From a virus (lineage: Duplodnaviria > Heunggongvirae > Uroviricota > Caudoviricetes), in the IMG/VR virus record IMGVR_UViG_2778261035_000011: a DNA stretch of 36,023 nt, one strand, 5' to 3'. Within the stretch, counting starts at the first letter, position 1; every line of letters starts with the position of its first letter. This document shows positions 1-36,023 of the stretch, in pieces. The notes below the pieces were generated by a model, which searched no databases, was not told the DNA's origin, and saw only the letters and a program-made list of their open reading frames with translations. Made by a program: the position numbers and the translations under genes.

Positions 1-447
1 TCAGTTTCGTTTACATTTATATGTCTTAAAAATATTCACATCATCTCGGATATAAAGATTTTTTCCTGATTTATCAACGATAAAATACTTTATAACCGCA
101 GGATTTCTAGTCAAAGCATAGAGATAATCAGTCCCTTTAATCTTTTCATCCTTGTCTTGTTCGTCAATTTGGCCTGTTTCTATCTGAGTGTATAGTTCAC
201 CTGTATCAAGGTCTGTCCATGACCCCATATCAACGCCCATATGCATACGAATACCGTGGCAGGTCCAAAAACCAGAGGCAGGGGCTTTATTTGCAACACT
301 CTTATCTGGATCTATCCCGGCGGACCTTAAGACTGCATCAGCAGCCACTTCAGGATCAAAATCTTTTTCTTGAGCGTGATTGACTGAGGAGGCGGTTAGT
401 ACGAATAGGCTGATGATGGTACTGATTAGCAATTTTGATTTTTTCAT
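1..447 (-). CDS. small secreted protein of unknown function (predicted signal peptide, two Cys); possible cargo/moron gene beyond mom
   Basis: ORF 1..477 minus ends with stop at 1-3. Internal ATG at 447 is preceded by a GGAG-like RBS and gives N-terminus MKKSKLLISTIISLFVLTASSVNHA followed by QEK, a typical Sec signal with AxA-like cleavage site. Region is visibly AT-rich compared with the rest of the window. No family recognised. Confidence 0.5.
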   Translation of the reverse strand: MKKSKLLISTIISLFVLTASSVNHAQEKDFDPEVAADAVLRSAGIDPDKSVANKAPASGFWTCHGIRMHMGVDMGSWTDLDTGELYTQIETGQIDEQDKDEKIKGTDYLYALTRNPAVIKYFIVDKSGKNLYIRDDVNIFKTYKCKRN

Positions 448-491
448 CTGATATGCTCCGTATGTGAGTAAATACATAAATTTATATGATA

Positions 492-1229
492 CTAATCAGA
501 ACTGCTTTTTGGGTATGGCTGAATCCTGAATAGATTAGTATTTAGTCGCTTCCTTGCTCGCTTGTTCAGGAACCTGATGTAGCGATACTGATTAAATTTG
601 TGCACCACGGCACGCTCTTTATTAGCCCGTAAATACACGCCTCGTTGTCCACCGCGCTTAATTGCGTTCATCGTTATCTCGTGATACCACTCACCATCCA
701 GCTCGTAGAACGTGCTTTCATGGCTGCCAATAAAATCAAAATTCGACGCCTGATACACAACGCCTGCGCGTCCGCAGCGTTCGTCAGCAAAGGACTGAAC
801 CCACTCCACTGACGGATACAGTAATCTGATAACTTTCAGCGCGTAGCTGATGGCCCGTGATTCAGAGTTGCGGGGCATGTCGTCGTGTAGCCACATGCGA
901 TTCAACTCCATATAGCCCCGGTTATCCGTTTCAAGCACGACACGACGACCTGAGTTGGGGTTAAGGGCATATCCCCACTGGAGAACGCCAACCAGATCGC
1001 GTCCGCTGAATACTCCTAGGTGGAGGTAAGAGTTATTCACAAAACGGCGGGAATAGTGCTTTGTCTGAATAATTGTGCGGGCCAGCCAGCAGGATATGGT
1101 TTCAACGCGCAGCTCCTTTGAACCATAGCCAACAATCTGGCCTTCATACTCAATAACGCACGGTTTCGTCAGAATGCGTGATTTTTTCTCTTTTCCCACA
1201 ATGTTTCTCCGTGGGATGCTCGCAGGCAT
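492..1229 (-). CDS. mom: Mom DNA-modification protein (adenine modification, anti-restriction)
   Basis: Position directly after com with 5' end overlapping the com 3' end, as in phage Mu; length about 235-245 aa. Exact start uncertain: ATG at 1229 or in-frame GTG at 1199. Confidence 0.85.
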
Positions 1230-1338
1230 TCAGCATTATGATGTGACGTTTGCAACGCGGACACCTGATTTCAATGTGATCAAAGGAATCCGCCTTAAAT
1301 AACAGTTTGTTGCAGTTTTTACAGCGAATTGATTTCAT
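1150..1338 (-). CDS. com: Com zinc-finger translational activator of mom
   Basis: 62 aa, [13 protein letters not shown]...CPRCKRH with four-Cys zinc finger; AAAGGAGG RBS upstream of ATG at 1338; 3' end overlaps mom 5' end. Confidence 0.9.
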
Positions 1339-1412
1339 CTCACCTCCTTTGCATCAATTCGCCACTATCTTAAAAAACATCATGGGTTGAGTGTGGTTAT
1401 TGGGGCATAATC

Positions 1413-1447
1413 GATCTGTATTACCGATCGATTTAATTGATTCGATC
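1413..1447. promoter_or_regulatory. cluster of three GATC (Dam) sites in the mom operon upstream control region
   Basis: GATC at 1413-1416, 1426-1429 and 1444-1447, lying 75-110 bp upstream of the com start on the transcribed side and overlapping the gin stop codon. Matches the known Dam/OxyR-controlled region of Mu Pmom. Confidence 0.6.
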
Positions 1448-2014
1448 GTCGTTTTCTATATGCGCTCGTTTCGCGGGGTGTTTTTTATACAGAGTTGACA
1501 GGGCCACATCGTAGATCAATGCAACCTGCTTGCGGGGGATTCCTTGTGCTAATAAACGCCCGGCCTGCTCCCATTCCGCTTTGGTTAGTTTAGGTGGTCG
1601 CCCACCAATACGGCCTTTATTTCTGGCGGCAGCAAGTCCAGCCATCGTTCGCTCGATGATTAGTTCTCGTTCCATTTCAGCCAGGGCACCCATAACGTGG
1701 AAGAAAAAACGCCCCATTGGAGAAGATGTGTCTATGCTGTCGGTCAGACTGCGAAAATTAATCCCTCGCTCCCGTAGTTCCCCGACGAGAGAAATCAGAT
1801 GTTTCATGCTTCGCCCGAGGCGATCCAGTTTCCAGACAACCAGCGTGTCACCTTTTTGAAGGCGTTTTAAAGCGCGTTTTAATCCCGGTCGGTCTGTCTT
1901 TGTCCCGCTTAATTTATCTTCAAATATTTGTTCACATCCTGCACAAACAAGAGCGTTTCGTTGCAGGTCTGTATTCTGGTCATTTGTTGATACCCTTACA
2001 TAGCCAATCAGCAC
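1433..2014 (-). CDS. gin: Gin serine DNA invertase (resolvase/invertase family)
   Basis: 193 aa, N-terminus MLIGYVRVSTNDQNTDLQ with catalytic Ser motif typical of Hin/Gin/Cin invertases; C-terminal HTH; sits immediately outside gixR. Confidence 0.95.
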   Translation of the reverse strand: MLIGYVRVSTNDQNTDLQRNALVCAGCEQIFEDKLSGTKTDRPGLKRALKRLQKGDTLVVWKLDRLGRSMKHLISLVGELRERGINFRSLTDSIDTSSPMGRFFFHVMGALAEMERELIIERTMAGLAAARNKGRIGGRPPKLTKAEWEQAGRLLAQGIPRKQVALIYDVALSTLYKKHPAKRAHIENDDRIN

Positions 2015-2068
2015 TCTGGATCTCCCGTTTAAAAGCGCAAATCATGCCATGCAGGCCGGAAACAACCA

Positions 2069-2094
2069 TTATCTAAAACCTCGGTTTACAAGAA
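2069..2094. repeat. gixR recombination site (inverted-repeat boundary of G segment)
   Basis: TTATCTAAAACCTCGGTTTACAAGAA on plus strand; reverse complement of 4891-4916 matches at 23 of 26 positions (TTATCCAAAACGTCGGTTTACAGGAA). Confidence 0.7.
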
Positions 2095-2790
2095 CTCGGC
2101 ACAAGCGGGGAGAAAATACCGTTACTCAGTACAGCGAATACCTGGACTAATCGACAAACATTCAGCGGTGGCCTTTCTGGGGAACTGTCCGGCAATGCCG
2201 CTACTGCAACAAAGCTGAAAACAGCACGAAAAATTGCTGGAGTTGGTTTTGATGGTTCTAGCGATATTTCAATTAGTGCCAAAAATGTCAATGCATTTGC
2301 ACTCCGACAAACAGGTAATACTGTTAATGGTGATACATCCGTTGGATGGAATTGGGATAGTGGTGCATATAACGCCCTGATTGGCGGTGCATCTGCATTA
2401 ATTCTTCACTTTAATATAAATGCTGGTAGCTGCCCTGCCGTACAATTCCGTGTGAATTATAAAAATGGTGGCATTTCCTACAGGTCAGCTCGTGATGGTT
2501 ATGGGTTTGAATTAGGTTGGTCAGATTTCTATACCACGACACGAAAACCTTCAGCGGGAGATGTTGGTGCATATACGAAGGCAGAATGTAACTCAAGGTT
2601 TATTACAGGTATTCGCCTTGGCGGTCTGTCATCTGTTCAGACATGGAATGGTCCCGGCTGGTCTGACAGGTCAGGTTATGTCGTTACAGGTTCAGTTAAC
2701 GGAAACCGTGATGAATTAATTGATACAACTCAGGCAAGGCCAATTCAGTATTGCATTAATGGGACGTGGTATAACGCGGGGAGTATTTAA
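2082..2790 (+). CDS. S': alternative tail fiber variable part S'v (start-less, silent in this orientation; would fuse to constant Sc after G inversion)
   Basis: Open frame from the stop at 2074-2076 to 2790 with no credible start; begins NLGLQELG at gixR, matching NVGLQE at gixL inside S; ends INGTWYNAGSI, similar to the S C-terminus INGTWYNVAQV. Confidence 0.65.
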
Positions 2791-2792
2791 CG

Positions 2793-3326
2793 ATGATGCA
2801 CTTAAAAAACATTACTGCTGGCAACCCTAAAACAAAAGAGCAATACCAGCTAACAAAGCAATTTAACATCAAATGGCTTTATTCAGATGATGGAAAAAAC
2901 TGGTATGAGGAACAAAAGAATTTCCAGCCAGACACTTTGAAAATGGTCTATGACCATAACGGCGTTATTATTTGTATTGAAAATGATGTTTCAGCAATTA
3001 ATCCGGAAGGCGCAAGCGTCGTTGAATTACCTGATATTACAGCAAATCGCCGGGCTGATATTTCGGGGAAATGGATGTTCAAAGATGGCGTAGTGATAAA
3101 GCGAACTTATACCGAGGAAGAGCAGAGACAACAAGCGGAAAATGAAAAGCAAAGCCTGTTGCAACTTGTCAGGGATAAAACCCAGCTATGGGACTCACAG
3201 CTACGGCTGGGCATCATTTCCGACGAGAATAAGCAGAAATTAACCGAGTGGATGCTCTTTGCACAGAAAGTCGAATCTACAGACACCTCCAGCCTGCCAG
3301 TAACGTTTCCCGAACAACCAGAATGA
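2793..3326 (+). CDS. U': alternative tail fiber assembly protein U'
   Basis: 177 aa; N-terminus [22 protein letters not shown] closely parallels U ([22 protein letters not shown]); convergent with U inside the G segment. Confidence 0.8.
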   Translation: MMHLKNITAGNPKTKEQYQLTKQFNIKWLYSDDGKNWYEEQKNFQPDTLKMVYDHNGVIICIENDVSAINPEGASVVELPDITANRRADISGKWMFKDGVVIKRTYTEEEQRQQAENEKQSLLQLVRDKTQLWDSQLRLGIISDENKQKLTEWMLFAQKVESTDTSSLPVTFPEQPE

Positions 3327-3330
3327 GAGA

Positions 3331-3348
3331 AGGCCCGATATCGGGCCT
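3331..3348. terminator. bidirectional hairpin between convergent U' and U
   Basis: Perfect palindrome AGGCCCGATATCGGGCCT followed by TTAATTTTT on the plus strand; lies between the U' stop (3326) and the U stop (3355). Confidence 0.5.
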
Positions 3349-3354
3349 TAATTT

Positions 3355-3882
3355 TTACTCTGGTTTTTGTGGCCATTCTGGCTTTGCCGTATCCACGCGG
3401 CTGACCAGAACGCTGTAGCGTTCCCAGGCTTCCAGTCGTGTACGTTCCTCATCTGTTGCCATATTCAGCCTGACAGCACGTTCCAGAAGCTGGATTACTG
3501 ATTCAGCTTCTGAAAGTAACGCGGCCTTTTGTGATTCGGTCTGTTGTTGCTGTTCGTCTGCTGTATAAATCCGCTTAACCACAGTTCCGTCCTTAAACAC
3601 CCACTTCCCTGAATCATCGGCACGACGATTGGCTGTTATATCGGGAATCTCAACGACGCTAAAGCCTTCGGGATTAAGTGTTGAGGCATCTTTGGTTATG
3701 GCAACAATAATATTATTTTCGTCGTATACAATCTTTATGGTGTCGTCCTGAAAGTTATTTACTTCCTCATACCAGTTTTTACCGTCTTCGGACCATAACC
3801 AGATAACATCAAAATTTTTTGTTAGCTGATATTGTTCTTTTGTTTTTGGATTTCCGGACTTAATATTTTTTAAATGCTGCAT
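3355..3882 (-). CDS. U: tail fiber assembly protein U
   Basis: 175 aa; paralogue of U'; directly downstream of S. Confidence 0.85.
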
Positions 3883-3885
3883 AAT

Positions 3886-5412
3886 TTACACCTGTGCGAC
3901 GTTATACCATGTGCCATTGATGTATTTTTGTATTGGTCTGAAGATGGCTTCATCATCGCCATCTACTTCACCAATGATTCTTAATCCGGTAATTGCGTGT
4001 CCGGCTTTTTCATAACGACCACCACGCGCCATCAATTGAACAACACGTGTGCCAAGTCGGACATCTCTCACATAGCGTGAGTCAAAATTGCCATAATTGC
4101 CGGGAATAATTTGCGCACCACAAAGCCAGTTACCGTTATTATCCATGTACGCCTGACCATCGGTGCCATTGGACGTCCTCGAATTATTAATCATGTAAAA
4201 ACCAAACTGGTAGTTACCAAGTCCACCGACAAAAAATTTGCGTTCTGCATGGTCTTGTCTTAACAAAGCCTGCGCAGAACTTGTTGATACTGCGTTTCTA
4301 CCAAAAATGACATTCTGGTTTCGCATATCAATCCATGAGGTTGAACCACTATTAATAGCAAACCTGTTTGCATACACCCAGGCGTTAGTTGTTATATCTC
4401 CTGTAACATCCAGACCATGCCCCATAATTATGCGACCAGTTCTGAGATTAAGCGTAAAGGGGCGTAGTGGCCCTATATCACCATTTTCCCCCTCATTCTC
4501 TCGTGTAGGGATGATATGCAGGCATTCTTCAGAACGACGAAAAATGGCACCAAAAGATGAATTAAATATCCTCAGTGCATTGACTGTAGATATTTTTACT
4601 TCACTGCTGAAAAGGGCTTTAACAAGAACATACAGAGCATCCCATTTAAGATTCATCAGGTCTTTTGTTGTGGTGCTCTGGCGACTTCTCCATTTGAAAT
4701 ATTCATTGCCGTTGTCACCTGTTTCAAACCACATATATGAATCAGTATCGCTGTCGGCATCATTTTTAAATCCAATTTTTGCCCAGTCAGTATTTCGAAT
4801 CCAGGCAAGGATTGAGTCGTTTTCAAAAGTAAGCCCGCCGGACAAAGTATCGCCATTTTTTTGCACGGCGTTCCCGGCTCGGTTTACCGTTTCCTGTAAA
4901 CCGACGTTTTGGATAAACAGCGGCTTATTGGGAATATCTGCTCCGTTCCGGTCTTTTGCCAGACGGGCATTGGCATTATCCATCGCAATTTTCACCGCTT
5001 TTGCGGTGGCTGCCAGCGTTTCACTGGGGCTGTCAGTGGCACTGGTTAGCTGAACGAGTCCTTTCTTGTTCAGGCTGGCATCATAAATATCCAGATTTTC
5101 ACGTGCTGTACGCTGTGCTGATGCCCCGGCAGTTTTAATTTCGCTGAGGTTATTTTTTATCAGCAGCGCATTCTTGTTCATGATGGCTTTAATGGACAGT
5201 GCAAGCTGGTTTAATTTTGTTTTATCCGGTTGAATACCGGCTTCTTCCAGCGTGTTTAATAACTCCGCCTGCACAATATTAAACCAGTCCATGCCGGGCC
5301 ATGTGATAACATTATTCCCGTCACCTTCTGAAAACCAGCGAACGATAGCACTACGCTGGGCGGATACGGGCGGCATGACGGTTACGCCGCTGTCGTTATC
5401 AATATAAAACAT
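3886..5412 (-). CDS. S: tail fiber protein S (constant N-terminal part outside G, variable C-terminal part inside G)
   Basis: 508 aa; gixL lies within the coding sequence at the ...PLFIQNVGLQETV segment; position after R in Mu synteny. Confidence 0.85.
   Translation of the reverse strand: MFYIDNDSGVTVMPPVSAQRSAIVRWFSEGDGNNVITWPGMDWFNIVQAELLNTLEEAGIQPDKTKLNQLALSIKAIMNKNALLIKNNLSEIKTAGASAQRTARENLDIYDASLNKKGLVQLTSATDSPSETLAATAKAVKIAMDNANARLAKDRNGADIPNKPLFIQNVGLQETVNRAGNAVQKNGDTLSGGLTFENDSILAWIRNTDWAKIGFKNDADSDTDSYMWFETGDNGNEYFKWRSRQSTTTKDLMNLKWDALYVLVKALFSSEVKISTVNALRIFNSSFGAIFRRSEECLHIIPTRENEGENGDIGPLRPFTLNLRTGRIIMGHGLDVTGDITTNAWVYANRFAINSGSTSWIDMRNQNVIFGRNAVSTSSAQALLRQDHAERKFFVGGLGNYQFGFYMINNSRTSNGTDGQAYMDNNGNWLCGAQIIPGNYGNFDSRYVRDVRLGTRVVQLMARGGRYEKAGHAITGLRIIGEVDGDDEAIFRPIQKYINGTWYNVAQV
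4891..4916. repeat. gixL recombination site inside S
   Basis: Plus strand TTCCTGTAAACCGACGTTTTGGATAA, inverted partner of 2069-2094. Confidence 0.7.
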
Positions 5413-5954
5413 TAGTTATCTCCGTCATGGTAAACAAATTTATAAATCTGATGCGCGGGTTTATATTTCTCCAGTAAACACTCCAGCGCACCCGATTCAT
5501 AAACACGTAACGGCGTCAGAACATTATCCAGCACCGTTGCGTTGCGATAATTTTTAATACCGTAAATATTGACCTGCGTAACCCACTGGCCTTCTGTGGA
5601 ATCCGTCAGCCTGACGGTAAAACCGTACTGCGCAGCCAGCCATTCATAAAAGCGCCGACTCAGATTGCCGGTCATACGCATTTTATTCGCGGCAGCCCGC
5701 TGGCGTTCGGACAGGGTGCCGTTTTCGCTGGTACAGTCCGGCAACCCCAGAAATGATTCCCACTCCCCCAGATACCAGCGGGATGTGGACGGGAAACGCT
5801 CCCGCAGCATTTGCCGCGCATCATCCGCCGCAGTGGCAATCACGTCGCTGATGGCCTGCGCCAGCGCAGATAATTTGCTGTCGGGGCTTTTATTCCAGGC
5901 AAGCCCTGACGGCAGTAATTGCAGAAAGGCCGTCTGATAGGGTGTTACAGCCAT
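5412..5954 (-). CDS. R: tail/baseplate protein R (Mu gp48-like)
   Basis: 180 aa; stop overlaps S start (ATGA-type coupling); position in Mu baseplate module. Confidence 0.7.
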   Translation of the reverse strand: MAVTPYQTAFLQLLPSGLAWNKSPDSKLSALAQAISDVIATAADDARQMLRERFPSTSRWYLGEWESFLGLPDCTSENGTLSERQRAAANKMRMTGNLSRRFYEWLAAQYGFTVRLTDSTEGQWVTQVNIYGIKNYRNATVLDNVLTPLRVYESGALECLLEKYKPAHQIYKFVYHDGDN

Positions 5955-7027
5955 TCAATTGTCCCCGGTGTTAACAGTTCCGTATTCTCCGAACGCTGGA
6001 TCTCTGTCGGGAAACGCACTTCAAAATCATCCAGACCGGTAACACCTGCCACCGCACGGATAATACGGGAGGGGGCAAGTGCGCCGCCCGGCGTCACCTC
6101 ATTAAAAAACATGGTATTAATGGCGTGGGTAATAGCCTGTTTTAGTTCGGCTGTCTTCGGTGATATATAAATCCGTGGATTTACCGGCTTTGCCTTTGGC
6201 GCAAATACAGTGACATTTACACCGTCAGGCTGTCCGACAATCAGACCGGTGATCGGGTCAGTATGACCGGCGATATAATCTGCCACGCGTTCCACGTCTG
6301 CCGGTTGTGGAAAAATATTGCTCCGGTTATCCATAACAAACGTCACCCCGACTGTGCCACCGCCTTTCCATGTCGGAAAACACCAGGCACGGGTAACGCC
6401 GCTGACTTCACGTGCCCAGCGGACGTAATCAAACTGATTACCGCCGAACGGAGGATACTGGACACGATATTCCAGCCGTGACAGCAGCTCCGCTGCACTC
6501 TCAATATCAGCCCCACCGGAAAACCCTTTTACAGTGATGGCATCGGAAACAACACAGGCAACCGGGGTGATCAACGTTAAAAGGGTATTCTCACCGGTAT
6601 TTCCTGCTTCACCGGCAGCCAGTGCGGTAACGGTAATTTCCGTCGTTCCTGCACGGTCAATCACAATGGCATCAGCCAGGCTGTAAACCACACCATCAGC
6701 ACGCTGCCAGCGTGTACCGGCAGGAATGGTGGTCGCTGCCGATGTGGTGACAGTCAGCGGACCGCTGGCGGCTGTCGCCTGTTTGCGGCGCACGCCCCAG
6801 AACCGACAGTGCTCCAGCAACTCATCTTCATCTGCTGTCGACGGGATAATCTGCCGTCCAACCCATGAAATATGCTCGTGACAACCGGCAGCAAGGCCTG
6901 CCTGAGCATAAGCAATGGCACTCAGCGTTTTTTCACGGGCCTGAGGCCAGCTACCCGGCAGGCGCTGTTCAATATTCTGTTCTGTACGGGCAATCAGCGA
7001 TGATAATGTCGGTGGTGAATAAGCCAT
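5945..7027 (-). CDS. W: baseplate J-like protein W (Mu gp47-like)
   Basis: 360 aa; position between V and R in Mu order. Confidence 0.75.
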   Translation of the reverse strand: MAYSPPTLSSLIARTEQNIEQRLPGSWPQAREKTLSAIAYAQAGLAAGCHEHISWVGRQIIPSTADEDELLEHCRFWGVRRKQATAASGPLTVTTSAATTIPAGTRWQRADGVVYSLADAIVIDRAGTTEITVTALAAGEAGNTGENTLLTLITPVACVVSDAITVKGFSGGADIESAAELLSRLEYRVQYPPFGGNQFDYVRWAREVSGVTRAWCFPTWKGGGTVGVTFVMDNRSNIFPQPADVERVADYIAGHTDPITGLIVGQPDGVNVTVFAPKAKPVNPRIYISPKTAELKQAITHAINTMFFNEVTPGGALAPSRIIRAVAGVTGLDDFEVRFPTEIQRSENTELLTPGTIEWL

Positions 7028-7465
7028 TTAAACCCCGTTAAATGCTGCTTTAAACTCATAAGGAATAACGGAACCATCCGGTAATGTCAGTGCAATGTAG
7101 AGGTATAACCAGCCCTGATGTAACTGTTCCGCTCTGACGTTAATCGCACTTACCCGGCCCGCTGTTTTCAGCCATTCCAGCGCCTCTTCGGCATATCCTC
7201 TGGCGCGTTCCAGCGTATCCGGCGTGGCTTTTTCACGTGATAACAGCCACAACCGCGAACCGATGGGGCGGTCGCGGTAACTGTCACCCCACCATCCACG
7301 GCGATCATCTGAACCATCCGGCAGCGTGTCAGAATCCAGCGCGCGCCGGTCGGTAAACAGGGAGATTGTCACATCGGTTGTCAGGCTGTCGTCGGTCAGC
7401 ATATCAATGCCATCCTGTGCAATATCGCCGCGTCCGTTCGTCCAGATAATGGCTAAATCGGTCAT
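7028..7465 (-). CDS. V: baseplate protein V (Mu gp46-like, gpW/gp25 lysozyme-like fold family)
   Basis: 145 aa; synteny. Confidence 0.7.
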   Translation of the reverse strand: MTDLAIIWTNGRGDIAQDGIDMLTDDSLTTDVTISLFTDRRALDSDTLPDGSDDRRGWWGDSYRDRPIGSRLWLLSREKATPDTLERARGYAEEALEWLKTAGRVSAINVRAEQLHQGWLYLYIALTLPDGSVIPYEFKAAFNGV

Positions 7466-8055
7466 TGCATTGGCCCCGTGGTTCCGCCGCTGTCGCCACG
7501 GTGGATATGCTTATCCGTCGATTTGCCATTGATGATGGCATCCGGGGCAGTAATATTGCTGTCGAACTGGCTTTTACCTTTAACGCCCAGACCTTTCTGG
7601 ATCTCAACGTCGCCGGTAAACGTGGTTCTGGGGGTGTCAACGGTCATACTTTCATCAGCGTAAACCTCAACCGTTTTACAGGTAATGATGCAGCGTCCGT
7701 CCTTTGTCAGCCGGATACGATGCCCCTCATGGTGGTAAATGCCTGCATCACCCGGTTCAAGATTTGTCGGGCGGTAGCGGCGGTCTTCCACCACAACAGC
7801 AATCCCCTGATCACGTTGTGCGCCCACACAGGCAATCAGCGCCTCTGCGCCAGGCAGAGGAACGCTGAAATGCCCGTAATTTTGCAGGCGCTCCACTTCA
7901 TCAGATTCCTCATCATCCAGCAGACCGACCTGCAGGTTCTGAACCTTTCGCCCGTCGTTAATCACGTTAACAACAGCGCGCGCAAGCATCAGGCGCACAC
8001 GACGCATCAGCGGCGTCAGCAGGCGGTTCAGGGCGGAATCATTTACTCTTTCCAC
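7462..8055 (-). CDS. Q: baseplate spike/assembly protein Q (Mu gp45-like)
   Basis: 197 aa; synteny between P and V. Confidence 0.7.
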   Translation of the reverse strand: MERVNDSALNRLLTPLMRRVRLMLARAVVNVINDGRKVQNLQVGLLDDEESDEVERLQNYGHFSVPLPGAEALIACVGAQRDQGIAVVVEDRRYRPTNLEPGDAGIYHHEGHRIRLTKDGRCIITCKTVEVYADESMTVDTPRTTFTGDVEIQKGLGVKGKSQFDSNITAPDAIINGKSTDKHIHRGDSGGTTGPMQ

Positions 8056-10662: not shown

Positions 10663-10666
10663 GGTT

Positions 10667-26461: not shown

Positions 26462-26488
26462 GGAAATAACCGGCAGGATGCCGGTTAT
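26462..26488 (-). terminator. putative intrinsic terminator at the end of C (end of middle transcript)
   Basis: Hairpin AACCGGCA-GGA-TGCCGGTT overlapping the C stop codon, followed on the minus-strand RNA by UUAUUUCCU. Confidence 0.45.
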
Positions 26489-26907: not shown

Positions 26908-26919
26908 ATTTTCCCCCGG

Positions 26920-27039: not shown

Positions 27040-27048
27040 GGTGCCCCT

Positions 27049-27622: not shown

Positions 27623-27669
27623 GATGATTTCCCCCGGTACGGTTATTCATCACAGGATATTGAGGACGT
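27623..27669 (-). promoter_or_regulatory. expected Mor-dependent middle promoter Pm (positional)
   Basis: Short gap between the early-operon terminator and the first middle-operon gene; Mu Pm is recalled to lie just after the early terminator; no motif verified. Confidence 0.35.
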
Positions 27670-27694
27670 AAAAAAAGCCGGATTAACCGGCTTT
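27670..27694 (-). terminator. rho-independent terminator of the early operon, immediately after mor
   Basis: Minus-strand RNA AAAGCCGG-UUAAU-CCGGCUUU followed by a 7-U tract (plus-strand A run 27670-27676); 6 nt downstream of the mor stop. Confidence 0.7.
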
Positions 27695-27699
27695 ACTGT

Positions 27700-28089
27700 T
27701 TACAGAAGTGAGGGCTGGTACTGGCGGTATTTCAGCCGTCGCATCCGGCGAATGGCCTTGTAAACCGTATTGAAAGTGACACCATAACGGGTGGTCAGTT
27801 CGCTGACGTTGCGACCGTTAAAATCATTCCAGATACGCAAATCCCGAATCAGCGAGTCCAGAACCTGACCGCGTGGAATGTAGACCTGACCGCCGCCCAG
27901 ATGCTTACAGATAGCCACAACAATCTCCAGTGAATGGGCAGGATCAACACCCAGCCGGGACAATTCCCCGCGTAGTAAATCGTTCAGCTCCGCCAGCAGT
28001 GCCGGAAAGCGTGACGTATCCTCTGCGGGATTGTCAAGATGTGCCAGGATGGTGTCATCCTGCAAATCACCAAATAAATCTTCCGTCAT
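27700..28089 (-). CDS. mor: middle operon regulator Mor (Mor/C family transcription activator)
   Basis: 129 aa; paralogous to C (26485..26907); last gene before the early terminator, as in Mu. Confidence 0.85.
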   Translation of the reverse strand: MTEDLFGDLQDDTILAHLDNPAEDTSRFPALLAELNDLLRGELSRLGVDPAHSLEIVVAICKHLGGGQVYIPRGQVLDSLIRDLRIWNDFNGRNVSELTTRYGVTFNTVYKAIRRMRRLKYRQYQPSLL

Positions 28090-28637
28090 TGTGCCATCCT
28101 CCGTGTCTTTCTGGCATGGGCATAAGCCGCCGTCATGGCATCATAGCCGCGCAGTTCACGACCGGACGGACTGACCGGCAATGGAAGCCCGTGACGGGAA
28201 AAGGCTTCACGAATACAGCGGATGTGCCACTGCTTGAGTGTTTCGAGGACTGTCAGCAGCGTGTCGCCATGACACCACGCCAGTGTGGAAACGCCCTGTC
28301 CGCCGTTGCGTTTCGCGGTCAGGCGCTGAACATATTTATCCAGCGCCACATCACCGCCATCGGCAATAAAACCGTCTTCTGCCATCTGCTGCCAGATTTT
28401 ATACACCTTCTCACGGGGCGTGACATGCCCCTTAAAGCGGCGACGGGGGTATTTATTCTGCTTCTTAAAGCCGCGTTCTTTCATGGCACCGAGCACCTGT
28501 TCCAGTTGCGTGACCGTCAGCTCGCGGCAACTGATTTTGCCTGTTTTCTGCATCAGAAAAGCGCGGTAAGTGTCATCGTCGAGTTGTAGTTCCCGACGGG
28601 CGACATGGATTAATTTAATCAGGGATGTGCGACTCAT
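28086..28637 (-). CDS. gemA: GemA-like regulatory protein (Mu gp16 family)
   Basis: 183 aa from ATG 28637 (GGAGG RBS); immediately upstream of and overlapping mor, as in Mu. Confidence 0.7.
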   Translation of the reverse strand: MSRTSLIKLIHVARRELQLDDDTYRAFLMQKTGKISCRELTVTQLEQVLGAMKERGFKKQNKYPRRRFKGHVTPREKVYKIWQQMAEDGFIADGGDVALDKYVQRLTAKRNGGQGVSTLAWCHGDTLLTVLETLKQWHIRCIREAFSRHGLPLPVSPSGRELRGYDAMTAAYAHARKTRRMAQ

Positions 28638-28740
28638 GATCGTACCTCCGGAAAGGGGGCGGTGCTGCAACACCGCCTGAATTTACACATCAATCAGAGT
28701 GGATTTTATGGAAAATAATGTTTTAGTTTCATTATTCATA

Positions 28741-28923
28741 TTATTCACCTTCACAATTCATGCACGCCGTGTCATCGCCCATATCGCAGTGGTTGCATTT
28801 CTGCCCACCACAATGAGGGCACTCTTTCAGATATTCAGGGTTTTCATTACCGCAGGTCGGACATTCCTGCTTCACAGTGGTAAATGTCCCCAGCCACGAA
28901 TACGATGTTTCATTGTTTTCCAT
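28741..28923 (-). CDS. small zinc-ribbon protein (8 Cys in four CxxC-type pairs)
   Basis: 60 aa with CPTCG...CPHCG...CNHC...CMNC; GGAGG RBS upstream of ATG 28923. Confidence 0.5.
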   Translation of the reverse strand: MENNETSYSWLGTFTTVKQECPTCGNENPEYLKECPHCGGQKCNHCDMGDDTACMNCEGE

Positions 28924-29440
28924 TGTTTACCTCCGCCTGTTTTTGCGCCCGGATAAATTCGTCAGAAAGGATTTCAGTCATGCGGCCTTGTGCGGGCGTC
29001 ATCCCCGTCATGACGTAAATCACATCACCAACACGGAACCACTGGAGAGGTCCGAATATTGTTGCGCTGAAATCCAGTCCCAGTGCGGGTAAGAGAGCAT
29101 CTGTGCGGGCATAAGTGACCGGAATATTCTCCTGCCATATTTTCGCCAGCTCTTTTGCCTGCTCCCTGAGATGAACAGGTATCCGCGAAGTTCTGGGCCT
29201 GCAACTGTTACCTGATGCGGGCCGTTGTACGGTCCACAGCTCCCGCGAGAAAGGGCGCTCATTCCCCGGAAAGTTCACACCATGAAAATAACGCCCACCA
29301 ATACCTGTGCTGAATACTGACCGGCAACCACAACCCAGAACCTTATCAAGATGGCGGGCTTCTTCGCGTAGTTTCAGACAGTCCGCCATAAACTGGTCCC
29401 ACGCCAGCAGTGCTGCGGGATTTGACGTTTTAAAAAACAT
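28910..29440 (-). CDS. hypothetical early protein
   Basis: 176 aa from ATG 29440, which overlaps the stop of the upstream gene (TGATG coupling); the track's longer start is a TTG. Confidence 0.5.
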   Translation of the reverse strand: MFFKTSNPAALLAWDQFMADCLKLREEARHLDKVLGCGCRSVFSTGIGGRYFHGVNFPGNERPFSRELWTVQRPASGNSCRPRTSRIPVHLREQAKELAKIWQENIPVTYARTDALLPALGLDFSATIFGPLQWFRVGDVIYVMTGMTPAQGRMTEILSDEFIRAQKQAEVNNGKQ

Positions 29441-29970
29441 CACGCCACCTCCTGCACCGCTACGGGAGCCGGAGAACAATCAAGAATGAGATAACGCAGT
29501 ACATGGTCGGTGATATTCCAGTCGCTTGAACTGCAAATAAACCGCCCCAGCCGGATATCGATATAAGCCATCACAAAACGTGGCATTCCCTGTTTGCACA
29601 TCTCGTCATCCACTTCTGCAACGATGTGAACGGACTCACAGGTCAGTACGCCTGTCGCAAACTCTTTTGCCAGTGCGGGGATGGTATTACCTTCCACCCA
29701 GGGTAATGAGCGACGCCAGTTGCACCACACCGCATCATCAACAGCAGGCTGCTCAGTTGCGTTTCGTCTTACAGGCGGCGTCGGACGCGGGCGCGGAACG
29801 TCATAAAATCCGTTGCATTCGGTGAGAACGCCGGCATCAACCGCATCACGCAGGAAATACACCATTGACGAGGGCAGCATATTCATTTTTTCAGCCAGAA
29901 CTCCGCAGGTCAGGCGTCCGTAAGCCCGTAATAATGTGCTGACACCATTCAGAATTTTTGCATCAACCAT
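29440..29970 (-). CDS. hypothetical early protein
   Basis: 176 aa; follows gam after a 98-bp AT-rich gap. Confidence 0.5.
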   Translation of the reverse strand: MVDAKILNGVSTLLRAYGRLTCGVLAEKMNMLPSSMVYFLRDAVDAGVLTECNGFYDVPRPRPTPPVRRNATEQPAVDDAVWCNWRRSLPWVEGNTIPALAKEFATGVLTCESVHIVAEVDDEMCKQGMPRFVMAYIDIRLGRFICSSSDWNITDHVLRYLILDCSPAPVAVQEVA

Positions 29971-30068
29971 GTTTTATTCCTCAGTAATCTGTTTCAGGCG
30001 CGAGCAATCCCCTGACGTATCGCGCCATAATTAAAAGAATGTGAATTAATTAAATATTAATGGTGGTA

Positions 30069-30593
30069 TTAAATACCGGCTTCCTGTTCAAATGGAATAA
30101 TAGAAAAATCCTCAATGCCTGATTTAACTGTAATTCCTGCAACACCTGCGACCGCTTTCGGTTCCAGTAAAATCGCTTCCTTGTTGATTTCCTGCTTCGT
30201 GCGAATAAAGCGTTGCAGGCCAAGACGCTCCAGCGTTTCCATCACTGCATCCATACCACGAATACTTACTGATGGTGGACGGACCCGCCACGATACATCA
30301 CCGGTGACAAGATTTGCCGTCTTCACTTTGCCGCCGTTCGTCAGTTCGTCGCGGTTCGCTTCACACCATCCCTGAACGCCTTTTGAAAGGGTTTCAATAT
30401 CGGTTTTAATCGGTGCAATCCGGGCCGCAAATTTCTCCGTAATTTCCGCGATGGCATCATTCATTTCCGTTTCCAGACGTGATGCTTCGCGCTGTAAATC
30501 CCCGATGCGTTTAATATCGGTAATCACCGCATCGCGGTTTTGTGGCACATAAGCCGCTGCGGCACTTTTGATACGTTTTGCTGGTTTAGCCAT
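30069..30593 (-). CDS. gam: Gam host-nuclease inhibitor (Ku-like DNA-end binding protein)
   Basis: 174 aa; N-terminus MAKPAKRIKSAAAAYVPQNRDAV and coiled-coil region typical of Mu Gam. Confidence 0.9.
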   Translation of the reverse strand: MAKPAKRIKSAAAAYVPQNRDAVITDIKRIGDLQREASRLETEMNDAIAEITEKFAARIAPIKTDIETLSKGVQGWCEANRDELTNGGKVKTANLVTGDVSWRVRPPSVSIRGMDAVMETLERLGLQRFIRTKQEINKEAILLEPKAVAGVAGITVKSGIEDFSIIPFEQEAGI

Positions 30594-30612
30594 AAATTAA
30601 AGCTCCTGTTAA

Positions 30613-30912
30613 TTAATATCCGCTGTATACAATGCTGGATACAGCTCGATTGCTTAATTCCATCTTTCGGGCAATGACATGAATATCCAGCCCTTCTTTA
30701 TAAAGTTCACGACATAAATATTTGTCGTGTTCACTGATTCGGTATACACACAATGATATTCCGTGCCTTCTGGCATGTGCCCGGAGGGCGGTTGTGGCGA
30801 CTTTCAGTTTTTCCGCCATTTCTTCAACGGTCATTTTCCCGACGTTGGCTTCGATAAATTCCCGGTCTTCGCGTGACCAGCGCTTACGATTACACTTCAT
30901 GTCAGCCACCAT
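30613..30912 (-). CDS. hypothetical early protein, possible HTH DNA-binding
   Basis: 99 aa; ...MTVEEMAEKLKVATTALRAHARRHG resembles a helix-turn-helix. Confidence 0.45.
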   Translation of the reverse strand: MVADMKCNRKRWSREDREFIEANVGKMTVEEMAEKLKVATTALRAHARRHGISLCVYRISEHDKYLCRELYKEGLDIHVIARKMELSNRAVSSIVYSGY

Positions 30913-31332
30913 TCAGTACAGCAGAGGCTCGCGCAGTGATGCCGGAATATGCCGCAGCGATAACTGAACCGCTTTCAGGGCAAGCGAGGAATAACAGCAG
31001 CGCGCCCAGCCTTTTGCCATTAACCGGTAATCGCGCCAGATACGCTGCCACATTTCACGGGCTTTCGGGTCTGATACACAGATGTATTCACGGTCCATGA
31101 CGTACTCCCATAAATCCACGTTAAACGCATCGCCAGACGCAATGGCGCGGGATATGCTTTCGCCACAATAACGCGCACAGATGCTGTAATGGTCGAAAGT
31201 AATCAGGTAAGTCTTTTCACCACAATCATCAACTTTCCGGGCGCAAATAAACTCGCGTAATTCACCACCGTTGTTATTGCGTTCCTGAATTCGGATTAAT
31301 GCCTGAATTTCATTTCGGATTTTGACGTTCAT
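30913..31332 (-). CDS. hypothetical early protein
   Basis: 139 aa, Cys- and Trp-rich; tightly packed in the early operon. Confidence 0.45.
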   Translation of the reverse strand: MNVKIRNEIQALIRIQERNNNGGELREFICARKVDDCGEKTYLITFDHYSICARYCGESISRAIASGDAFNVDLWEYVMDREYICVSDPKAREMWQRIWRDYRLMAKGWARCCYSSLALKAVQLSLRHIPASLREPLLY

Positions 31333-31352
31333 TGTCAGCGTTCCTTTGCGAA

Positions 31353-31622
31353 TTAATGTTTAACCGCATTCACCGGATGTGGTACTAAATCACATTCAGC
31401 TTCCATACCCACTTTCTTCATAGTGGTCAGCATCTCATCTTTGGCCTTTTTAATAATTTCAGGAGCCATAGTCAGGACGATATTTGCCAGTAAATCATGA
31501 GGCCCGGTATTTTCCGTTGGCGAGATATCTGCAAGACATGCTTTTGCATCCAGAACTTCTCTGCGCCCATTGCAACCGTCACTACTTTCCAGCCATGTAA
31601 ACTCAAAGATAACCTTTGCCAT
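31353..31622 (-). CDS. hypothetical early protein
   Basis: 89 aa; early-operon synteny. Confidence 0.45.
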   Translation of the reverse strand: MAKVIFEFTWLESSDGCNGRREVLDAKACLADISPTENTGPHDLLANIVLTMAPEIIKKAKDEMLTTMKKVGMEAECDLVPHPVNAVKH

Positions 31623-31633
31623 TTTGTTTCTCC

Positions 31634-31888
31634 TTATTGATTCTGAATAACTGCGCTGGCTTTTACCTTCGCGCCTTTTACCTGCTTAAAGAAAACCGCG
31701 CTGCACCACGGACAACATGTCAGGGAATCCCGAATTTCCTTTTCGGGTGAGCATTGCGTCATAATCTGTTCACCACATCCGGGGCATTTATATGTCGTCA
31801 GCGGCACCCCGTGGCACTGACAGTGTTTAACCCATTCAATATATTTTTCAGCTTTAATACACATCGTTATCTCCAGATAATCTGGCAA
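31634..31888 (-). CDS. Cys-rich small protein (putative zinc-binding)
   Basis: 84 aa with CQCHG...CPGCG...CCPWC motifs. Confidence 0.5.
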
Positions 31889-32094
31889 CCATTAAGACGG
31901 GCCGTCCATACAGAACGGGCCACCCCGGACTTATGCTCCATAATTCTGACCGCGCTTTTTACCAGTTCCACCGGTGGGTAAGTGATTTCAAGAATCGGAC
32001 GCGCCACACCGAGATATGATTCATTTACATGACTCCCGCGCGCCTGTAACCAGTTCTGCGCATCCGTTGCCATTTTTATATTTCGGGCCATCAT
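31867..32094 (-). CDS. small early protein directly after B (position of Mu kil/cim-type genes)
   Basis: 75 aa; first ORF after B. The kil assignment is positional only. Confidence 0.4.
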
Positions 32095-32109
32095 AATTTC
32101 TTCTCCTTC

Positions 32110-33048
32110 TTAATTACGCAGCAGCGTTGAAATATCAACGTCCAGGTCTAATTCACGGAAAGCCTGACGCAGATAATCTTCGTTAACACGCTCATCTTTA
32201 CCGTGAGCCGTCATGGCGGCAAGGCGAAGTGAATGATTCAGAATGCGAAGCGCACCTGGTTTCTGCGCAATCTGCTGTAATAACTCCAGTTCTTTTTCGC
32301 CGTTAATCTGCCAGGCATCCGCAATAGCTTTTACATCGGCTTTTTTTGTTTTATTAATTGCAGTGCGCTTTGCAATACGGGAAAACAGACGGGCAAATTC
32401 AACCGTTCTGTTACCCCCCGTCATATTTGAATAAACCCGGTGATTTCCCATCAGCACAAGGCCAATACGGGTTGATTCCTGTAACAGGCGGAGTTCTTCC
32501 AGAACTTCGGCACCAAGATGATCAGCTTCGTCGATGATAACCAGCCCCTGTGTACCTTCAAGGCGACGTCGCAGGGCGCGGGAGAGCGGCCCTTTACGGC
32601 GTGGTGCGTCATTCATTCCCAGCTCAAACGCCAGTTCAGTAAGACATTCCAGAACGCTGGCACAGGATGGCGTAATGGTGATCATCCAGACATTGTTATT
32701 GGTGCGGCGATATTCACGGGCCGCTTCGGTTTTGCCCACACCAGGATTGCCACATACAACAGCAATACTTTCAGTCAGGCTGGCAAAACGCATACTTGTC
32801 CAGATTTGTTTTACCGTCTGCGTTTCCACAAAGCGGGGCGGTTCAGGTAGTTCTGCAACTGCATGATATTTTTCCAGCCAGCGTTGCAGAATTTGTGAAA
32901 CACGCTCGTTATCCCCGTTGTACTTATCATTGATAAAACTACTGATAGTTCCGGTAGAAAGTCCGCTCTCAAGAGCAATTTGTTTAAAGGTGGTTTCTTC
33001 ATTTTCTACAAGCGTGCGCAGTCCTGCGCGAATATCGGAAATATTCAT
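32110..33048 (-). CDS. B: transposition ATPase / target DNA activator MuB
   Basis: 312 aa; Walker A VVCGNPGVGKT and Walker B LVIIDEADHL; immediately downstream of the transposase gene. Confidence 0.95.
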   Translation of the reverse strand: MNISDIRAGLRTLVENEETTFKQIALESGLSTGTISSFINDKYNGDNERVSQILQRWLEKYHAVAELPEPPRFVETQTVKQIWTSMRFASLTESIAVVCGNPGVGKTEAAREYRRTNNNVWMITITPSCASVLECLTELAFELGMNDAPRRKGPLSRALRRRLEGTQGLVIIDEADHLGAEVLEELRLLQESTRIGLVLMGNHRVYSNMTGGNRTVEFARLFSRIAKRTAINKTKKADVKAIADAWQINGEKELELLQQIAQKPGALRILNHSLRLAAMTAHGKDERVNEDYLRQAFRELDLDVDISTLLRN

Positions 33049-33086
33049 CTGAATAACCTCGTAATTAAATTTTGTTTAAACGTTAA

Positions 33087-35093
33087 TTAAATGGCTTTTT
33101 TACGTCTGTTCTGTTCCAGAATATCCAGCGAATGATTCAGATATTCATCACGCTCAGTTTCGTATTCATCATCACGCTCCTGATTCTTCACCCGTTCCAT
33201 ATTACCGGAAGGCCGGAAAATGCCGACAATTCGTGATTCTGGTGCTTCAGGTTCGGCTATCTGCGGCAGCAGCTCTGCCACTTCCAGTGCATCCATTTGT
33301 TTCTGTGCCTTAATCGCTGCTTTCGTCGCAGATTTCAGTTGTTTCTGGCGGCGGCGATATTCACGGCCTGCCGCAGCATCATTAAACGCAACAGGTGACA
33401 GACATTCCGCTTCACAGATAAACCGACCGTCCAGGGTGTAGCAATAAACCGTGCTGTGTAACTGCTGTGGATCAAATCTGACCACAACTTTTTTCACTCC
33501 GGCATTCATTAACGCCATGTTGTAATAAACGTTTTTCGCACCTTTAAGGGAGCCGCCAACTTTAAGCGCGAACTCGCCTTTACGTGAAACGTTCACCGCC
33601 TCGGCAGGCAGTAACAGCATCCGTTTTTGCTCTTCGGTAGGCTTACGCACAATCGTTCTGGCGTATTCACGCTCAAAAACGTCATCAAACGAAAGTTTGC
33701 CTCCGCACATTTCTGTTTCACGGCCTGTTCTGGCATTGAACATCGCCACACCTTCGGCAAGGGTTTTCAGAAACAGCTCTGCATCAACAGCGCGGTCGCC
33801 ATAGTTATCAGGTTTTGCCTGCGGATTAGGCCCCGTATATGCGCCAGCCAGTGCCGGATGCTTATCAACGTATTCCTCAAGCCCACCAACACCGAAAGCA
33901 CGTTCAACAGGTTTTGCCTGGCCCCAGCCTTTACCGGCAACAACGCTTGTCCAGTGCATTTTCGCCCCCATCAGTAAAAACAGTCCTTTTGGATCGTCCT
34001 CTTTTACCTTAAAGCGGTAGCGATTGGGCGCGCCTCCCGTCAGCCATTTATTCGCAGCACCACGGGTGTTATCAATGGTGATGTGAAAATCCTCCGGGAT
34101 ACCGTAGCGAGTCACAACATCCATGAACGAGAGGCGAATTGAATCAATGTTCTCGCTCACATCGCAGCGCCAGCCCAGAATTTTTCGGGTTTTCACATCC
34201 TGCCAGAACCATGTTTTCGGGCGGATCACATCACCGTTAAACCAGCGTACAAAGACGTTATGCAGATAACCGTCGCCGTTGATCCACTGCATGGCGTCCA
34301 GGTGTTCCACAGTTCGTTGTTGTGCCGGTATCAGATGCATCAGTGCATGTTCACCTTCACGGCAGGCAACAACCATTGCCTCGTTCAGTTGCTGAATCCG
34401 GCGAAAGGCCGTGGCACGGGAGGGAATACTCCAGCCATGCTCGCGGGCTGCCAGTTCCAGACGCTCATAACATTTGCGGAAGGCGGGTTTTTCCGGTCGC
34501 AGATAATCTGCAATCAGAAACTGCCAGGCATCCTCGTCAAATTCACTTTTGTGAACATTGCGACGGGATGCACCACGTCCATCAACAAGAGCAGCCGCCC
34601 AGTCAGGCTTCGCAAACTTCTGTACCTGGTAATACTTGTCACGCAAAGTGGATGCGCTGACCTGGTAATGTCCTGCAACGGTCGCAAAAGCCGTTTTTGT
34701 TGAAATCCCCTGGTTCAGCATTTCGTCTGCGGCCTGAACCGCAGGCAACCATTTTTCAGCAAGTCTGCGCTGGGAATCGCTGGCGTTATCCCATTTGCTC
34801 CACAGCGCCTCGCGATCATAATCGTGGGCTTCCAGCGTGGGGCGGGCGATTTCAAAACGGCCCATGCTTGTTTCAATCTCTCCTTGTCTAAGCAATAACG
34901 CAGCTTGCGTTTCCTTTGGTAAAGATGAGATATGAAACTCATAGGCTACTCCTCTTACCCCGTGTATCTGTCGAAACACCCACTGTTCTAACCTTGCTTT
35001 ACGAGAGATCGCGCTAGAGGATTTTGGAAGACCTATCAGCCCTTCTAATTTCTTTGCAGAAAACCAATCATTACATTGTGGTTGCATTTTCAA
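33087..35093 (-). CDS. A: DDE transposase MuA
   Basis: 668 aa; N-terminal DNA-binding domain homologous to the repressor N-terminus in this window; long central catalytic core; acidic C-terminal tail ending NRRKKAI. Confidence 0.95.
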
Positions 35094-35317
35094 TACCTCG
35101 AAGGCCAGAGGTCTCGTGGCTCAACTCCCAATGCATCGGCAATAATTCTTTCACCCCGAGGGTAAGGTTTATCCAAGGCATTTTTTACCGTAGAGATAGA
35201 GAGACCGTTCTCACGACCAAGAGCTGCTAGGCTTTTTCCTCTTTTGCGCAGATCAGCAACAATGTCGTATCTGCTTTTGTCTTCACATTTACTTTTCTTT
35301 ATCGCCATAAAATGCAA
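35090..35317 (-). CDS. ner: Ner-like DNA-binding regulator (negative regulator of repressor and early transcription)
   Basis: 75 aa; ...[38 protein letters not shown] matches the Ner/Nlp family signature; divergent from c across the operator region. Confidence 0.85.
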
Positions 35318-35504
35318 TCCTCACAAGCTACGCCATCAGCTACGCCGCAAGGTAGCTGACAAGGTATGCAGCAATGTTAGTGTGAATACATTGTCAATGC
35401 AATGATGTATTCAAATATTTCGTTTGAATTTCATCTATCTTGATGATTTTAAAATGAATATATTTTTGTTTCTTTGAATACATGGTGTATTTAAAGCGAG
35501 GTTT
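35318..35504. promoter_or_regulatory. operator / divergent promoter region between ner and c (expected Pe, Pc and transposition enhancer)
   Basis: AT-rich 187-bp gap with repeated TGAATA(CA) motifs in both orientations (35384-35390, 35406-35413 inverted, 35424-35429, 35453-35458, 35475-35482). Confidence 0.6.
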
Positions 35505-36023
35505 GTGATGACACAAGAATGGTTTTCAGCTAAAGAGCTACAAGGGGTTGCTGGTCTTCCGTCTTCAGCAAGTAGTATTAGCCGCAAAGCAACTAATGAG
35601 GGATGGAAAAAGAGACAGATCAAAGGAGTAAAGGGAGTTGCTTATGAATACCATATCAGCTCATTACCTGATGCCACTCAGGCAGAATTAGGAGGGGCGC
35701 AGTTATTAGATAGCGATAAGCCAGCTTATAAGTTAGCTTCTGTGTTAATGGCTTTGGTCGCAGAGTTAGAACCAGAGGAAATCCAGAGGGCATTAAAGCT
35801 ACTTAGTAAAGGCGGACTTGGAGCACTAATGCCAAGTATCTTTGATCAGACTCAAATCCAATCTCTGCACGGCGTATCGCGTGAGTGCATACAACTAGCC
35901 CAAATGCTAGAAACTTTACCAGCAGATGCGCGCAAAGAGATTTTGTCAGAGTATGGTATTCATGAACAGGAAGGTTTTGTAGCTCCTTCACAAGAACCAC
36001 AAGATGTAAAAAAAGCCGTATAA
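35505..36023 (+). CDS. c: Mu-type repressor c
   Basis: 172 aa; N-terminal domain shares long identical stretches with the MuA N-terminus here (WFSAKEL.G..GLP.S.S.ISRKA; GV.GVAYE.HISSLP); C-terminus ...[28 protein letters not shown]; divergent from ner. Confidence 0.9.

Follow-up and report, generated by a model that had tools for sequence, protein, structure and literature searches.

Which phage does the 36,023-nucleotide viral record IMGVR_UViG_2778261035_000011 belong to, and how much of that phage does it hold? The initial annotation had read this stretch, the whole of which we call the window, as a near-complete Mu/D108-type element in reverse orientation, and comparing it with Mu and D108 at both nucleotide and protein level bore this out. 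A megablast search of 50,697 phage records gave full-length minus-strand matches (E = 0) to PhiR68_1, D108, Mu, Mu_3F6 and SfMu, the window being the reverse complement of the standard Mu map. Colinear coverage and nucleotide identity were 97.7% and 97.5% for PhiR68_1, 95.3% and 97.6% for D108, and 93.7% and 97.2% for Mu, while no phage record in the search was 99% or more identical across the whole window. We used as species criterion for Muvirus mu about 95% or more genome-wide nucleotide identity to Mu/D108 together with colinear gene order; the window showed 97.2–97.6% identity over 93.7–97.7% of its length and an identical gene order. Judged from its sequence, the window is almost certainly an essentially complete, apparently intact Muvirus mu genome (a transposable myovirus of the Mu/D108/PhiR68_1 group), trimmed, and most probably taken from a prophage integrated in the chromosome of an enterobacterium.

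Reference proteins of Mu (56) and of D108 (30) were compared with the window by tblastn. Fifty-three of the 56 Mu proteins were located, in Mu order; all of them except S' aligned end to end, mostly at 94–100% identity, and the matched genes showed no sign of disruption. Mu gp14, gp15 and Mu_54 had no tblastn match in the window. Every gene that had been named from c to mom, from high to low coordinates, was placed in that order; the list stood as far as it went, but had missed one gene after mom, the D108 gp56. An Rfam gathering scan and a tRNA scan of the window found nothing. The features are listed in Table 1.

Table 1. Features of the window, from base 1 upwards (strand relative to the window; aa, amino acid)
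Feature	Position	Strand	Remarks
gp56 ('D108-specific protein', 148 aa)	1-447	-	100% aa identity to D108 gp56; stop codon at bases 1-3
com (1150-1338) overlapping mom (492-1229); DNA-modification module and its translational activator	492-1338	-	com 100%, mom 98.8% identical to Mu/D108
gin, serine DNA invertase	1433-2014	-	99.5% aa identity to Mu Gin
gin-proximal gix site, TTATCTAAAACC TC GGTTTACAAGAA	2069-2094	.	inverted repeat I2; left half-site as in D108
Invertible G segment, S-U-expressing orientation	2083-4902	.	S'v 2083-2790 (+), U' 2793-3326 (+), U 3355-3882 (-), Sv 3886-4902 (-)
S tail fibre gene, 508 aa	3886-5412	-	constant part 4917-5412, variable part inside G; Pfam Phage_fiber_2 and Gp34_trimer
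gix site inside S, coding strand TTATCCAAAACG TC GGTTTACAGGAA	4891-4916	.	identical to the corresponding D108 and PhiR68_1 site
Tail/baseplate: gp48/R, gp47/W, gp46/V, gp45/Q, P, N, tape measure (10667-12739), gp41/Y, tube M, sheath L, gp38	5412-15384	-	95-100% aa identity, full length
Head/packaging: K, J, gp35, T (major capsid), I/Z (protease and scaffold), G, F, H (portal), E (TerL), D (TerS)	15368-24554	-	97-100% aa identity, full length
Central strong gyrase site region	18890-19090	.	99.5% identical to Mu 17780-17980
gp26, then lysis cassette: releasin gp25, gp24, o-spanin, i-spanin, SAR endolysin	24566-26390	-	95-100% aa identity to Mu
Regulators/middle: C (26485-26907), gp20, gp19, gp18, mor (27700-28089), gemA (28086-28637)	26485-28637	-	95-100% aa identity
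gp13-gemA junction	28638-28740	.	Mu 7673-8148 (gp14, gp15, Mu_54) absent; Mu alignment jumps from 8149 to 7672
Semi-essential early region: gp13, gp12, gp11, gam (30069-30593), gp9, gp8, gp7 (31353-31622), gp6, kil	28741-32094	-	most 93-100% aa identity to Mu
B, MuB AAA+ target-capture ATPase	32110-33048	-	99.4% aa identity to MuB
A, MuA DDE transposase, 666 aa	33087-35087	-	93.8% aa identity to MuA
ner, 72 aa	35090-35308	-	48% aa identity to Mu Ner, 65% to D108 Ner; Pfam HTH_35
c-ner intergenic region, divergent genes	35309-35507	.	conserved with PhiR68_1
c repressor, 171 aa	35508-36023	+	47.6% aa identity to Mu c, 40% to D108 c; stop codon is the last three bases

The internal hallmarks of Muvirus mu were all found; the hallmarks at its ends, MuA-binding sites with 5'-TG...CA-3' termini and a 5-bp target duplication at effectively random insertion sites, fall outside the window. 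In particular, the window carries a MuA-type DDE transposase whose DNA-binding domains are of Mu type and, after it, the MuB AAA+ ATPase, c on the plus strand divergent from ner-A-B on the minus strand, with a repressor and a transposase that share an N-terminal DNA-binding domain, and, at sequence level, gin with a gix-bounded G segment holding alternative S/U and S'/U' fibre genes. Mor and C, the middle and late promoters, com/mom and the central strong gyrase site were also present, with proteins 98–100% and promoter and gyrase regions 97–100% identical to Mu. Regarding single control sites, the middle promoter Pm, the promoter PI, the late promoter PP and the Pmom upstream region (Mu 35674–35770) were 100% identical to Mu, the semi-early promoter 98.5% and Plys 97%. 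The Mu gyrase cut site 17879/17880 corresponds to about window bases 18990–18991, and the chaperone gp41/Y has its frameshift extension, with a frameshift region 97.7% identical to Mu.

The likeness to Mu and D108 held for this backbone, but not for the immunity module (c, ner and the A N-terminus), which is of neither type. Mu and D108 immunity were both ruled out by the c and Ner identities given in Table 1, and the block that includes ner and c (28953–36023) had 97.6% nucleotide identity to PhiR68_1. The c repressor contains the Pfam domain HTH_Tnp_Mu_1 (E = 2e-22), and a protein identical to A contains HTH_Tnp_Mu_1, HTH_Tnp_Mu_2, DDE_2 and Mu-transpos_C. The first ~60 residues of A represent the third immunity type. 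The N-termini of c and A were 65% identical over 60 aa (E = 4e-26), a likeness expected of the co-varying pair in a Mu immunity module. By these alignments, the module is a third type, as in PhiR68_1, and very common in public assemblies: the exact c protein was listed in 4,520 index blocks and the exact A protein in 3,223, and both proteins of the window are already present in thousands of assemblies. Because the module matches neither textbook type, Mu or D108, lysogens would be predicted to show heteroimmunity towards both phages. At nucleotide level the c-ner intergenic region did not match the Mu operator region, and a promoter scan of it gave matches no more numerous than in shuffled sequence; operators, early promoter and transposition enhancer should, from position only, lie there.

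In the early region, the gp7 gene is the PhiR68_1 allele; it has no match in Mu, and its product is 40% identical (aa) to D108 gp7. The slot between gp13 and gemA is variable among Mu-like prophages, and relatives bear different genes there.

In the G segment, the proposed Mu/D108 likeness applied to U and U' (93–99% identical to Mu/D108), but parts of the fibre genes were unlike both phages. S was 77–80% identical to Mu/D108, the match of S'v was confined to its C-terminal 165 aa, and bases 2095–2291 and 4276–4597 of the window had no match in Mu or D108. The S'v frame is open from the gix site, and inverting the segment in silico gave an intact S' ORF of 406 aa. The exact S protein was found on at least 23 public contigs, and two E. 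coli genomes had S'v-type sequence directly following the constant part of S. The same gin on near-identical loci showed the Pfam domains Resolvase and HTH_7, and the central TC dinucleotide is common to both gix sites. In SfMu, a G adjacent to the crossover point of the gix site in S has been proposed to block inversion (PMC4406740). We rejected such a block for the gix site in the S gene of the window, because D108 and PhiR68_1 have the same base, which therefore reflects natural variation and does not indicate a defect.

The closest known systems divide these features among them. PhiR68_1 (PV340575.1), an Escherichia phage isolate, shares with the window the c/ner/A N-terminus module, the gp7 allele and the D108-type gp56 after mom; it differs in lacking gp19 (window 27039–27407), in carrying two extra ORFs (222 and 113 aa) at the gp13-gemA junction, where the window is empty, and in a different start of S'v (window 2095–2291). 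D108 (NC_013594.1), also an Escherichia phage isolate, was 98.3–98.8% identical at the right end, in gin and throughout the late and middle region, and has the same gp56 and the same gix sequence inside S, whereas its immunity module and gp7 allele differ, it carries gp14, and the variable parts of S and S' were only 80–89% identical or unmatched. Mu (NC_000929.1/AF083977.1) has the gene order and all regulatory landmarks in common with the window, at 97–98% identity over 93.7%, but has no gp56, carries gp14, gp15 and Mu_54, and has a different immunity module, gp7 and G-segment fibre tips. By these comparisons, the genome is a mosaic of a D108/Mu-like backbone, the D108 gp56 at the right end, a PhiR68_1-type immunity module and fibre-gene tips that resemble those of P88-like P2-type phages. 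Its phage type and biology are already known; as an ordinary representative of a phage species that ranks among the most thoroughly studied, it is of slight importance beyond correct annotation. Most of the differences among the Mu-type prophages that we compared fall in the fibre tips and a small number of accessory slots.

The window is bounded by the stop codons of its outermost genes, gp56 and c, and both termini lie outside it, as the initial annotation had held: the MuA end-site consensus had no match in the window, while in the Mu, D108 and PhiR68_1 references it matched only at their ends. Five near-identical copies (99.97–99.98% over 15.4 kb) were found as integrated prophages at five different chromosomal sites, all within bacterial chromosome contigs of 150–340 kb. 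All five had the canonical right-end sequence ...GCGCCGCTTCA, 92 bp past base 1 of the window. The left end was read from relatives sharing the c protein, which belong to other lineages and are 98.7% identical or less: in 10 out of 10 such loci it was ...AATCAATACA, located 338 bp beyond the c stop codon (base 36023) and followed by unrelated host DNA. The look-ups with c and A, both very common proteins, returned only other lineages, so the left end of the near-identical lineage was not among them. For the window's own copy we predict a right terminus, on the reverse strand, of ...TTTTCGTGCGCCGCTTCA that ends 92 bp before base 1, and a left terminus of ...CTTCAAGTGAATCAATACA that ends about 338 bp after base 36023. 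With ~92 and ~338 bases beyond the window ends, the full element is predicted at ~36,453 bp; it is longer than 36 kb, as had been claimed, but exceeds the window by only ~430 bp. Mu-type copies occupied many different chromosomal loci in the relatives compared, and in E. coli MIN10 the insertion of a close relative splits a DKNYY-family gene, with a 5-bp target duplication (TCGGC). Among 5,426 complete E. coli genomes there was no copy with 99% identity or more over most of the query. Copies on a Salmonella enterica chromosome (L009) and on an E. coli chromosome (L011) were identical to each other over 15.4 kb. A literature search on Mu-like prophages in Salmonella arizonae found nothing relevant.

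Ends that fall exactly on the outermost stop codons are also what a coding-span extract of any record would give, and the nearest phage records, PhiR68_1 and D108, are isolates; the window could come from a phage isolate, as virion DNA or a genome record cut down to its coding span, and not from an integrated prophage. We consider this unlikely, as a gene-based prophage caller would trim at stop codons in the same way, no phage record reached 99% identity across the window, and the near-identical copies all lay inside chromosomes. A defective, grounded remnant that no longer transposes or forms particles is very improbable. The absence of gp14, gp15 and Mu_54 and of the termini from the window would fit such a remnant, but the slot of those three genes differs among the isolates Mu, D108 and PhiR68_1 and among related prophages, the other Mu proteins with a counterpart, S' excepted, align end to end, and the occurrence of near-identical copies in two genera, at five or more sites, speaks for recent mobility.

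The P2-like phages P88 and Xuanwuvirus P884B11 matched gin and the G segment (window 1659–4916) at 92–96% identity, which might suggest another type of element, such as a P2-like phage or a hybrid, with only some Mu-like modules. This similarity is limited to the invertible fibre cassette and gin; the remaining genome of P88 and P884B11 is unrelated to Mu, and the other ~33 kb of the window are colinear with Mu and D108 at 97–99%. The whole-window alignments refuted this reading, to which we give practically no credence.

As an apparently intact Muvirus mu genome, the element would be expected to follow the life cycle of Mu, a mechanism that we infer from the very high identity between the two. 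The c repressor would keep the early promoter shut, and upon induction Ner, MuA and MuB would be made. MuA would bind the terminal sites, 92 bp and 338 bp outside the window, as well as an enhancer in the c-ner operator region, and together with MuB would carry out replicative transposition with 5-bp target duplications. Mor and, after it, C would activate the middle and late operons, with the genes for lysis, the head, the tail and mom. Gin would invert the 2.8-kb G segment between the two gix sites, thereby swapping S/U against S'/U' fibres and changing the host range, and Com and Mom would modify the DNA against restriction.

Finally, gp56 belongs to PHROG 15648, a group without assigned function, and had no Pfam, PADLOC or PDB match; its single-sequence AlphaFold model (pLDDT 56.5) was too poor for a fold search. 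Its N-terminus has a signal-peptide-like stretch. It is possible, though we consider it doubtful, that one Mu-type phage lineage is at present passing from genus to genus, and that the divergent fibre tips, and perhaps a secreted gp56, could underlie its host breadth or act as lysogenic-conversion functions.

Minus-strand matches to Mu-family phage records extended along the entire window (E = 0). Colinear blastn alignments covered 95.3% of the window with phage D108 (NC_013594.1) at 97.6% identity, 97.7% with PhiR68_1 (PV340575.1) at 97.5% identity, and 93.7% with Mu (NC_000929.1/AF083977.1) at 97.2% identity. The initial annotation had proposed a near-complete, inverted Mu/D108-like prophage, and these alignments bear it out; judged by its sequence, the window belongs to Muvirus mu. 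We then queried the window by tblastn with 56 Mu and 30 D108 proteins, translated from the gene annotation of the two records. All the genes previously named were found in the same order from high to low coordinates and, S' apart, aligned over their full length. Identity was mostly 94–100%, but lower for c, ner, gp7 and the S/S' fibre genes. The c, S'v and U' genes lie on the plus strand and all the remaining genes on the minus strand, which is the inverted Mu map. Thus, the proposed gene order stood, while the gene list had missed gp56, beyond mom. The finding holds but is not new: a published comparison of SfMu, Mu and D108 describes the conserved backbone and the divergent c/ner and G-segment genes (PMC4406740).

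Features of the window at its right end, G segment and accessory slots
Feature	Position	Strand	Description
gp56	1-447	-	148-aa ORF after mom, extreme right end; 100% identical to D108 gp56 ("D108-specific protein")
gix, gin-proximal	2069-2094		central dinucleotide TC
G segment	2083-4902		bounded by gix sites
gix inside S	4891-4916		central dinucleotide TC
gp18-gp20 slot	27039-27407		gp19 in the window; variable among Mu-type prophages
gp13-gemA slot	28638-28740		empty in the window; variable among Mu-type prophages

D108 was the closest record for the right end of the window, while PhiR68_1 was the closest for the left end and the immunity module. Positions 34888-36023 had no match in D108, and only the last 120 bases matched Mu (85%). 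The c protein was 48% identical to Mu c and 40% to D108 c, and Ner 48% and 65% identical to its Mu and D108 counterparts, respectively. By these sequence comparisons, the immunity module (c, ner and the A N-terminus) is of a third type, neither Mu nor D108; the block that includes it (28953-36023) was 97.6% identical to PhiR68_1. The c protein matched the Pfam domain HTH_Tnp_Mu_1, and across 60 aa the N-termini of c and A shared 65% identity. Co-varying c and A N-termini are expected, given that the repressor of Mu competes with its transposase for shared operator/enhancer DNA. This third type is extremely widespread: in the public assembly index, 4,520 blocks list the exact 171-aa c repressor and 3,223 the exact 666-aa A transposase.

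The gp7 gene corresponded to the PhiR68_1 allele, and Mu 7673-8148 (gp14, gp15 and Mu_54) was missing from the window. Those three genes occupy the gp13-gemA slot in Mu, whereas PhiR68_1 carries 222-aa and 113-aa ORFs there and the prophage of E. coli MIN10 an oppositely oriented DUF2513 gene. The gp18-gp20 slot is empty in PhiR68_1 and holds a GH108 muramidase gene in two other bacterial loci with Mu-type prophages (L021 and L024). Regarding gp56, its N-terminus was signal-peptide-like, it belonged to PHROG 15648 (function unknown) and had no Pfam, PADLOC or PDB match, and its single-sequence AlphaFold model reached a pLDDT of 56; it may be a moron, an accessory gene with a secreted product.

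The gix pair was mismatched at three positions, one of them adjoining the central TC, where the site inside S has G and the gin-proximal one C. This G is shared with D108 and PhiR68_1; both Mu sites have C instead. Because the start of S'v differs, the window has an inverted repeat of 26 bp, compared with 34 bp in Mu. U and U' were 93–99% identical to Mu/D108, but stretches at 4276-4597 (part of Sv) and 2095-2291 (start of S'v) had no match in Mu or D108. The latter was also absent from PhiR68_1, and was the exception among window segments, nearly all of which match at least one public phage record; many E. coli genomes carry it in their tail-fibre genes. In the P2-like phages P88 and P884B11, the entire gin-plus-G block matched at 92–96%. 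The segment is oriented so that S and U are expressed. The S'v frame is open starting at gix, and in-silico inversion yielded an intact 406-aa S'. Two complete E. coli genomes have this S'v-type sequence joined directly to the constant part of S; therefore, this cassette type occurs in both orientations in nature.

Both window borders coincide with stop codons: base 1 opens that of the outermost gene at the right end, and base 36023 closes that of c. The consensus for MuA end sites, as annotated in D108 (YMYNWRAARYRCGAAAR), had zero matches within the window, and in Mu, D108 and PhiR68_1 it matched at the termini only. The exact S protein was found on at least 23 public contigs, and five out of six fetched loci were 99.97–99.98% identical to window 1-15412 (3–5 differing positions), each in a different chromosomal context. 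All five ended in ...TTTTCGTGCGCCGCTTCA, exactly 92 bp past window base 1. At the left, 10 out of 10 fetched loci with the exact c ended in ...CTTCAAGTGAATCAATACA, 338 bp past the stop codon of c, with unrelated host DNA beyond. As initially proposed, neither terminus is inside the window and the element is longer than 36 kb, with a predicted length of 36,453 bp (36,023 + 92 + 338). The MIN10 prophage, closely related and sharing the window's immunity module, spans 36,711 bp and interrupts a DKNYY-family gene, with the 5-bp duplication TCGGC on both flanks. At another locus (L016:10759-20516), the only gene called beside the left end of a Mu-type prophage with the same c protein was a 327-aa P22-type portal ORF; further out lie P22-like terminase, lysis and nin genes, an arrangement suggestive of a Mu-type phage inserted into another prophage.

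Fifty-three Mu proteins have a counterpart in the window and all except S' align end to end, with no sign of gene disruption; moreover, near-identical copies occupy many different sites. Together, these observations argue for an active phage and against a remnant. The regions of the strong gyrase site, Pm, the semi-early promoter, Plys, PI and PP, the region upstream of com and the tail-chaperone frameshift region were 97–100% identical to Mu, and no tRNA genes or Rfam families were detected in the window. Given its identity to Mu, the phage would share the mechanism of Mu: early transcription would be under c/Ner control, MuA/MuB would drive replicative transposition from ends just beyond the window, Mor and then C would carry the transcriptional cascade, Gin would switch host range, and Com/Mom would modify DNA.

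Finally, we compared the flanks (15505-21527 in both) adjoining the near-identical copies of window 1-15412 in two loci, L009 and L011. The two copies show the same four differences from the window and hence match each other perfectly over 15.4 kb. The L009 flank had no megablast match among 5,426 E. coli genomes, and its fepA region shared 98% aa and 95.7% nt identity with that of the Salmonella enterica subsp. diarizonae type strain, while the L011 flank matched E. coli hyuA/arcC at 100% identity. Recent spread between genera, involving a Salmonella enterica-like and an E. coli chromosome, is suggested by these two assemblies of partly verified taxonomy. Such spread fits the historically reported host range of Mu.
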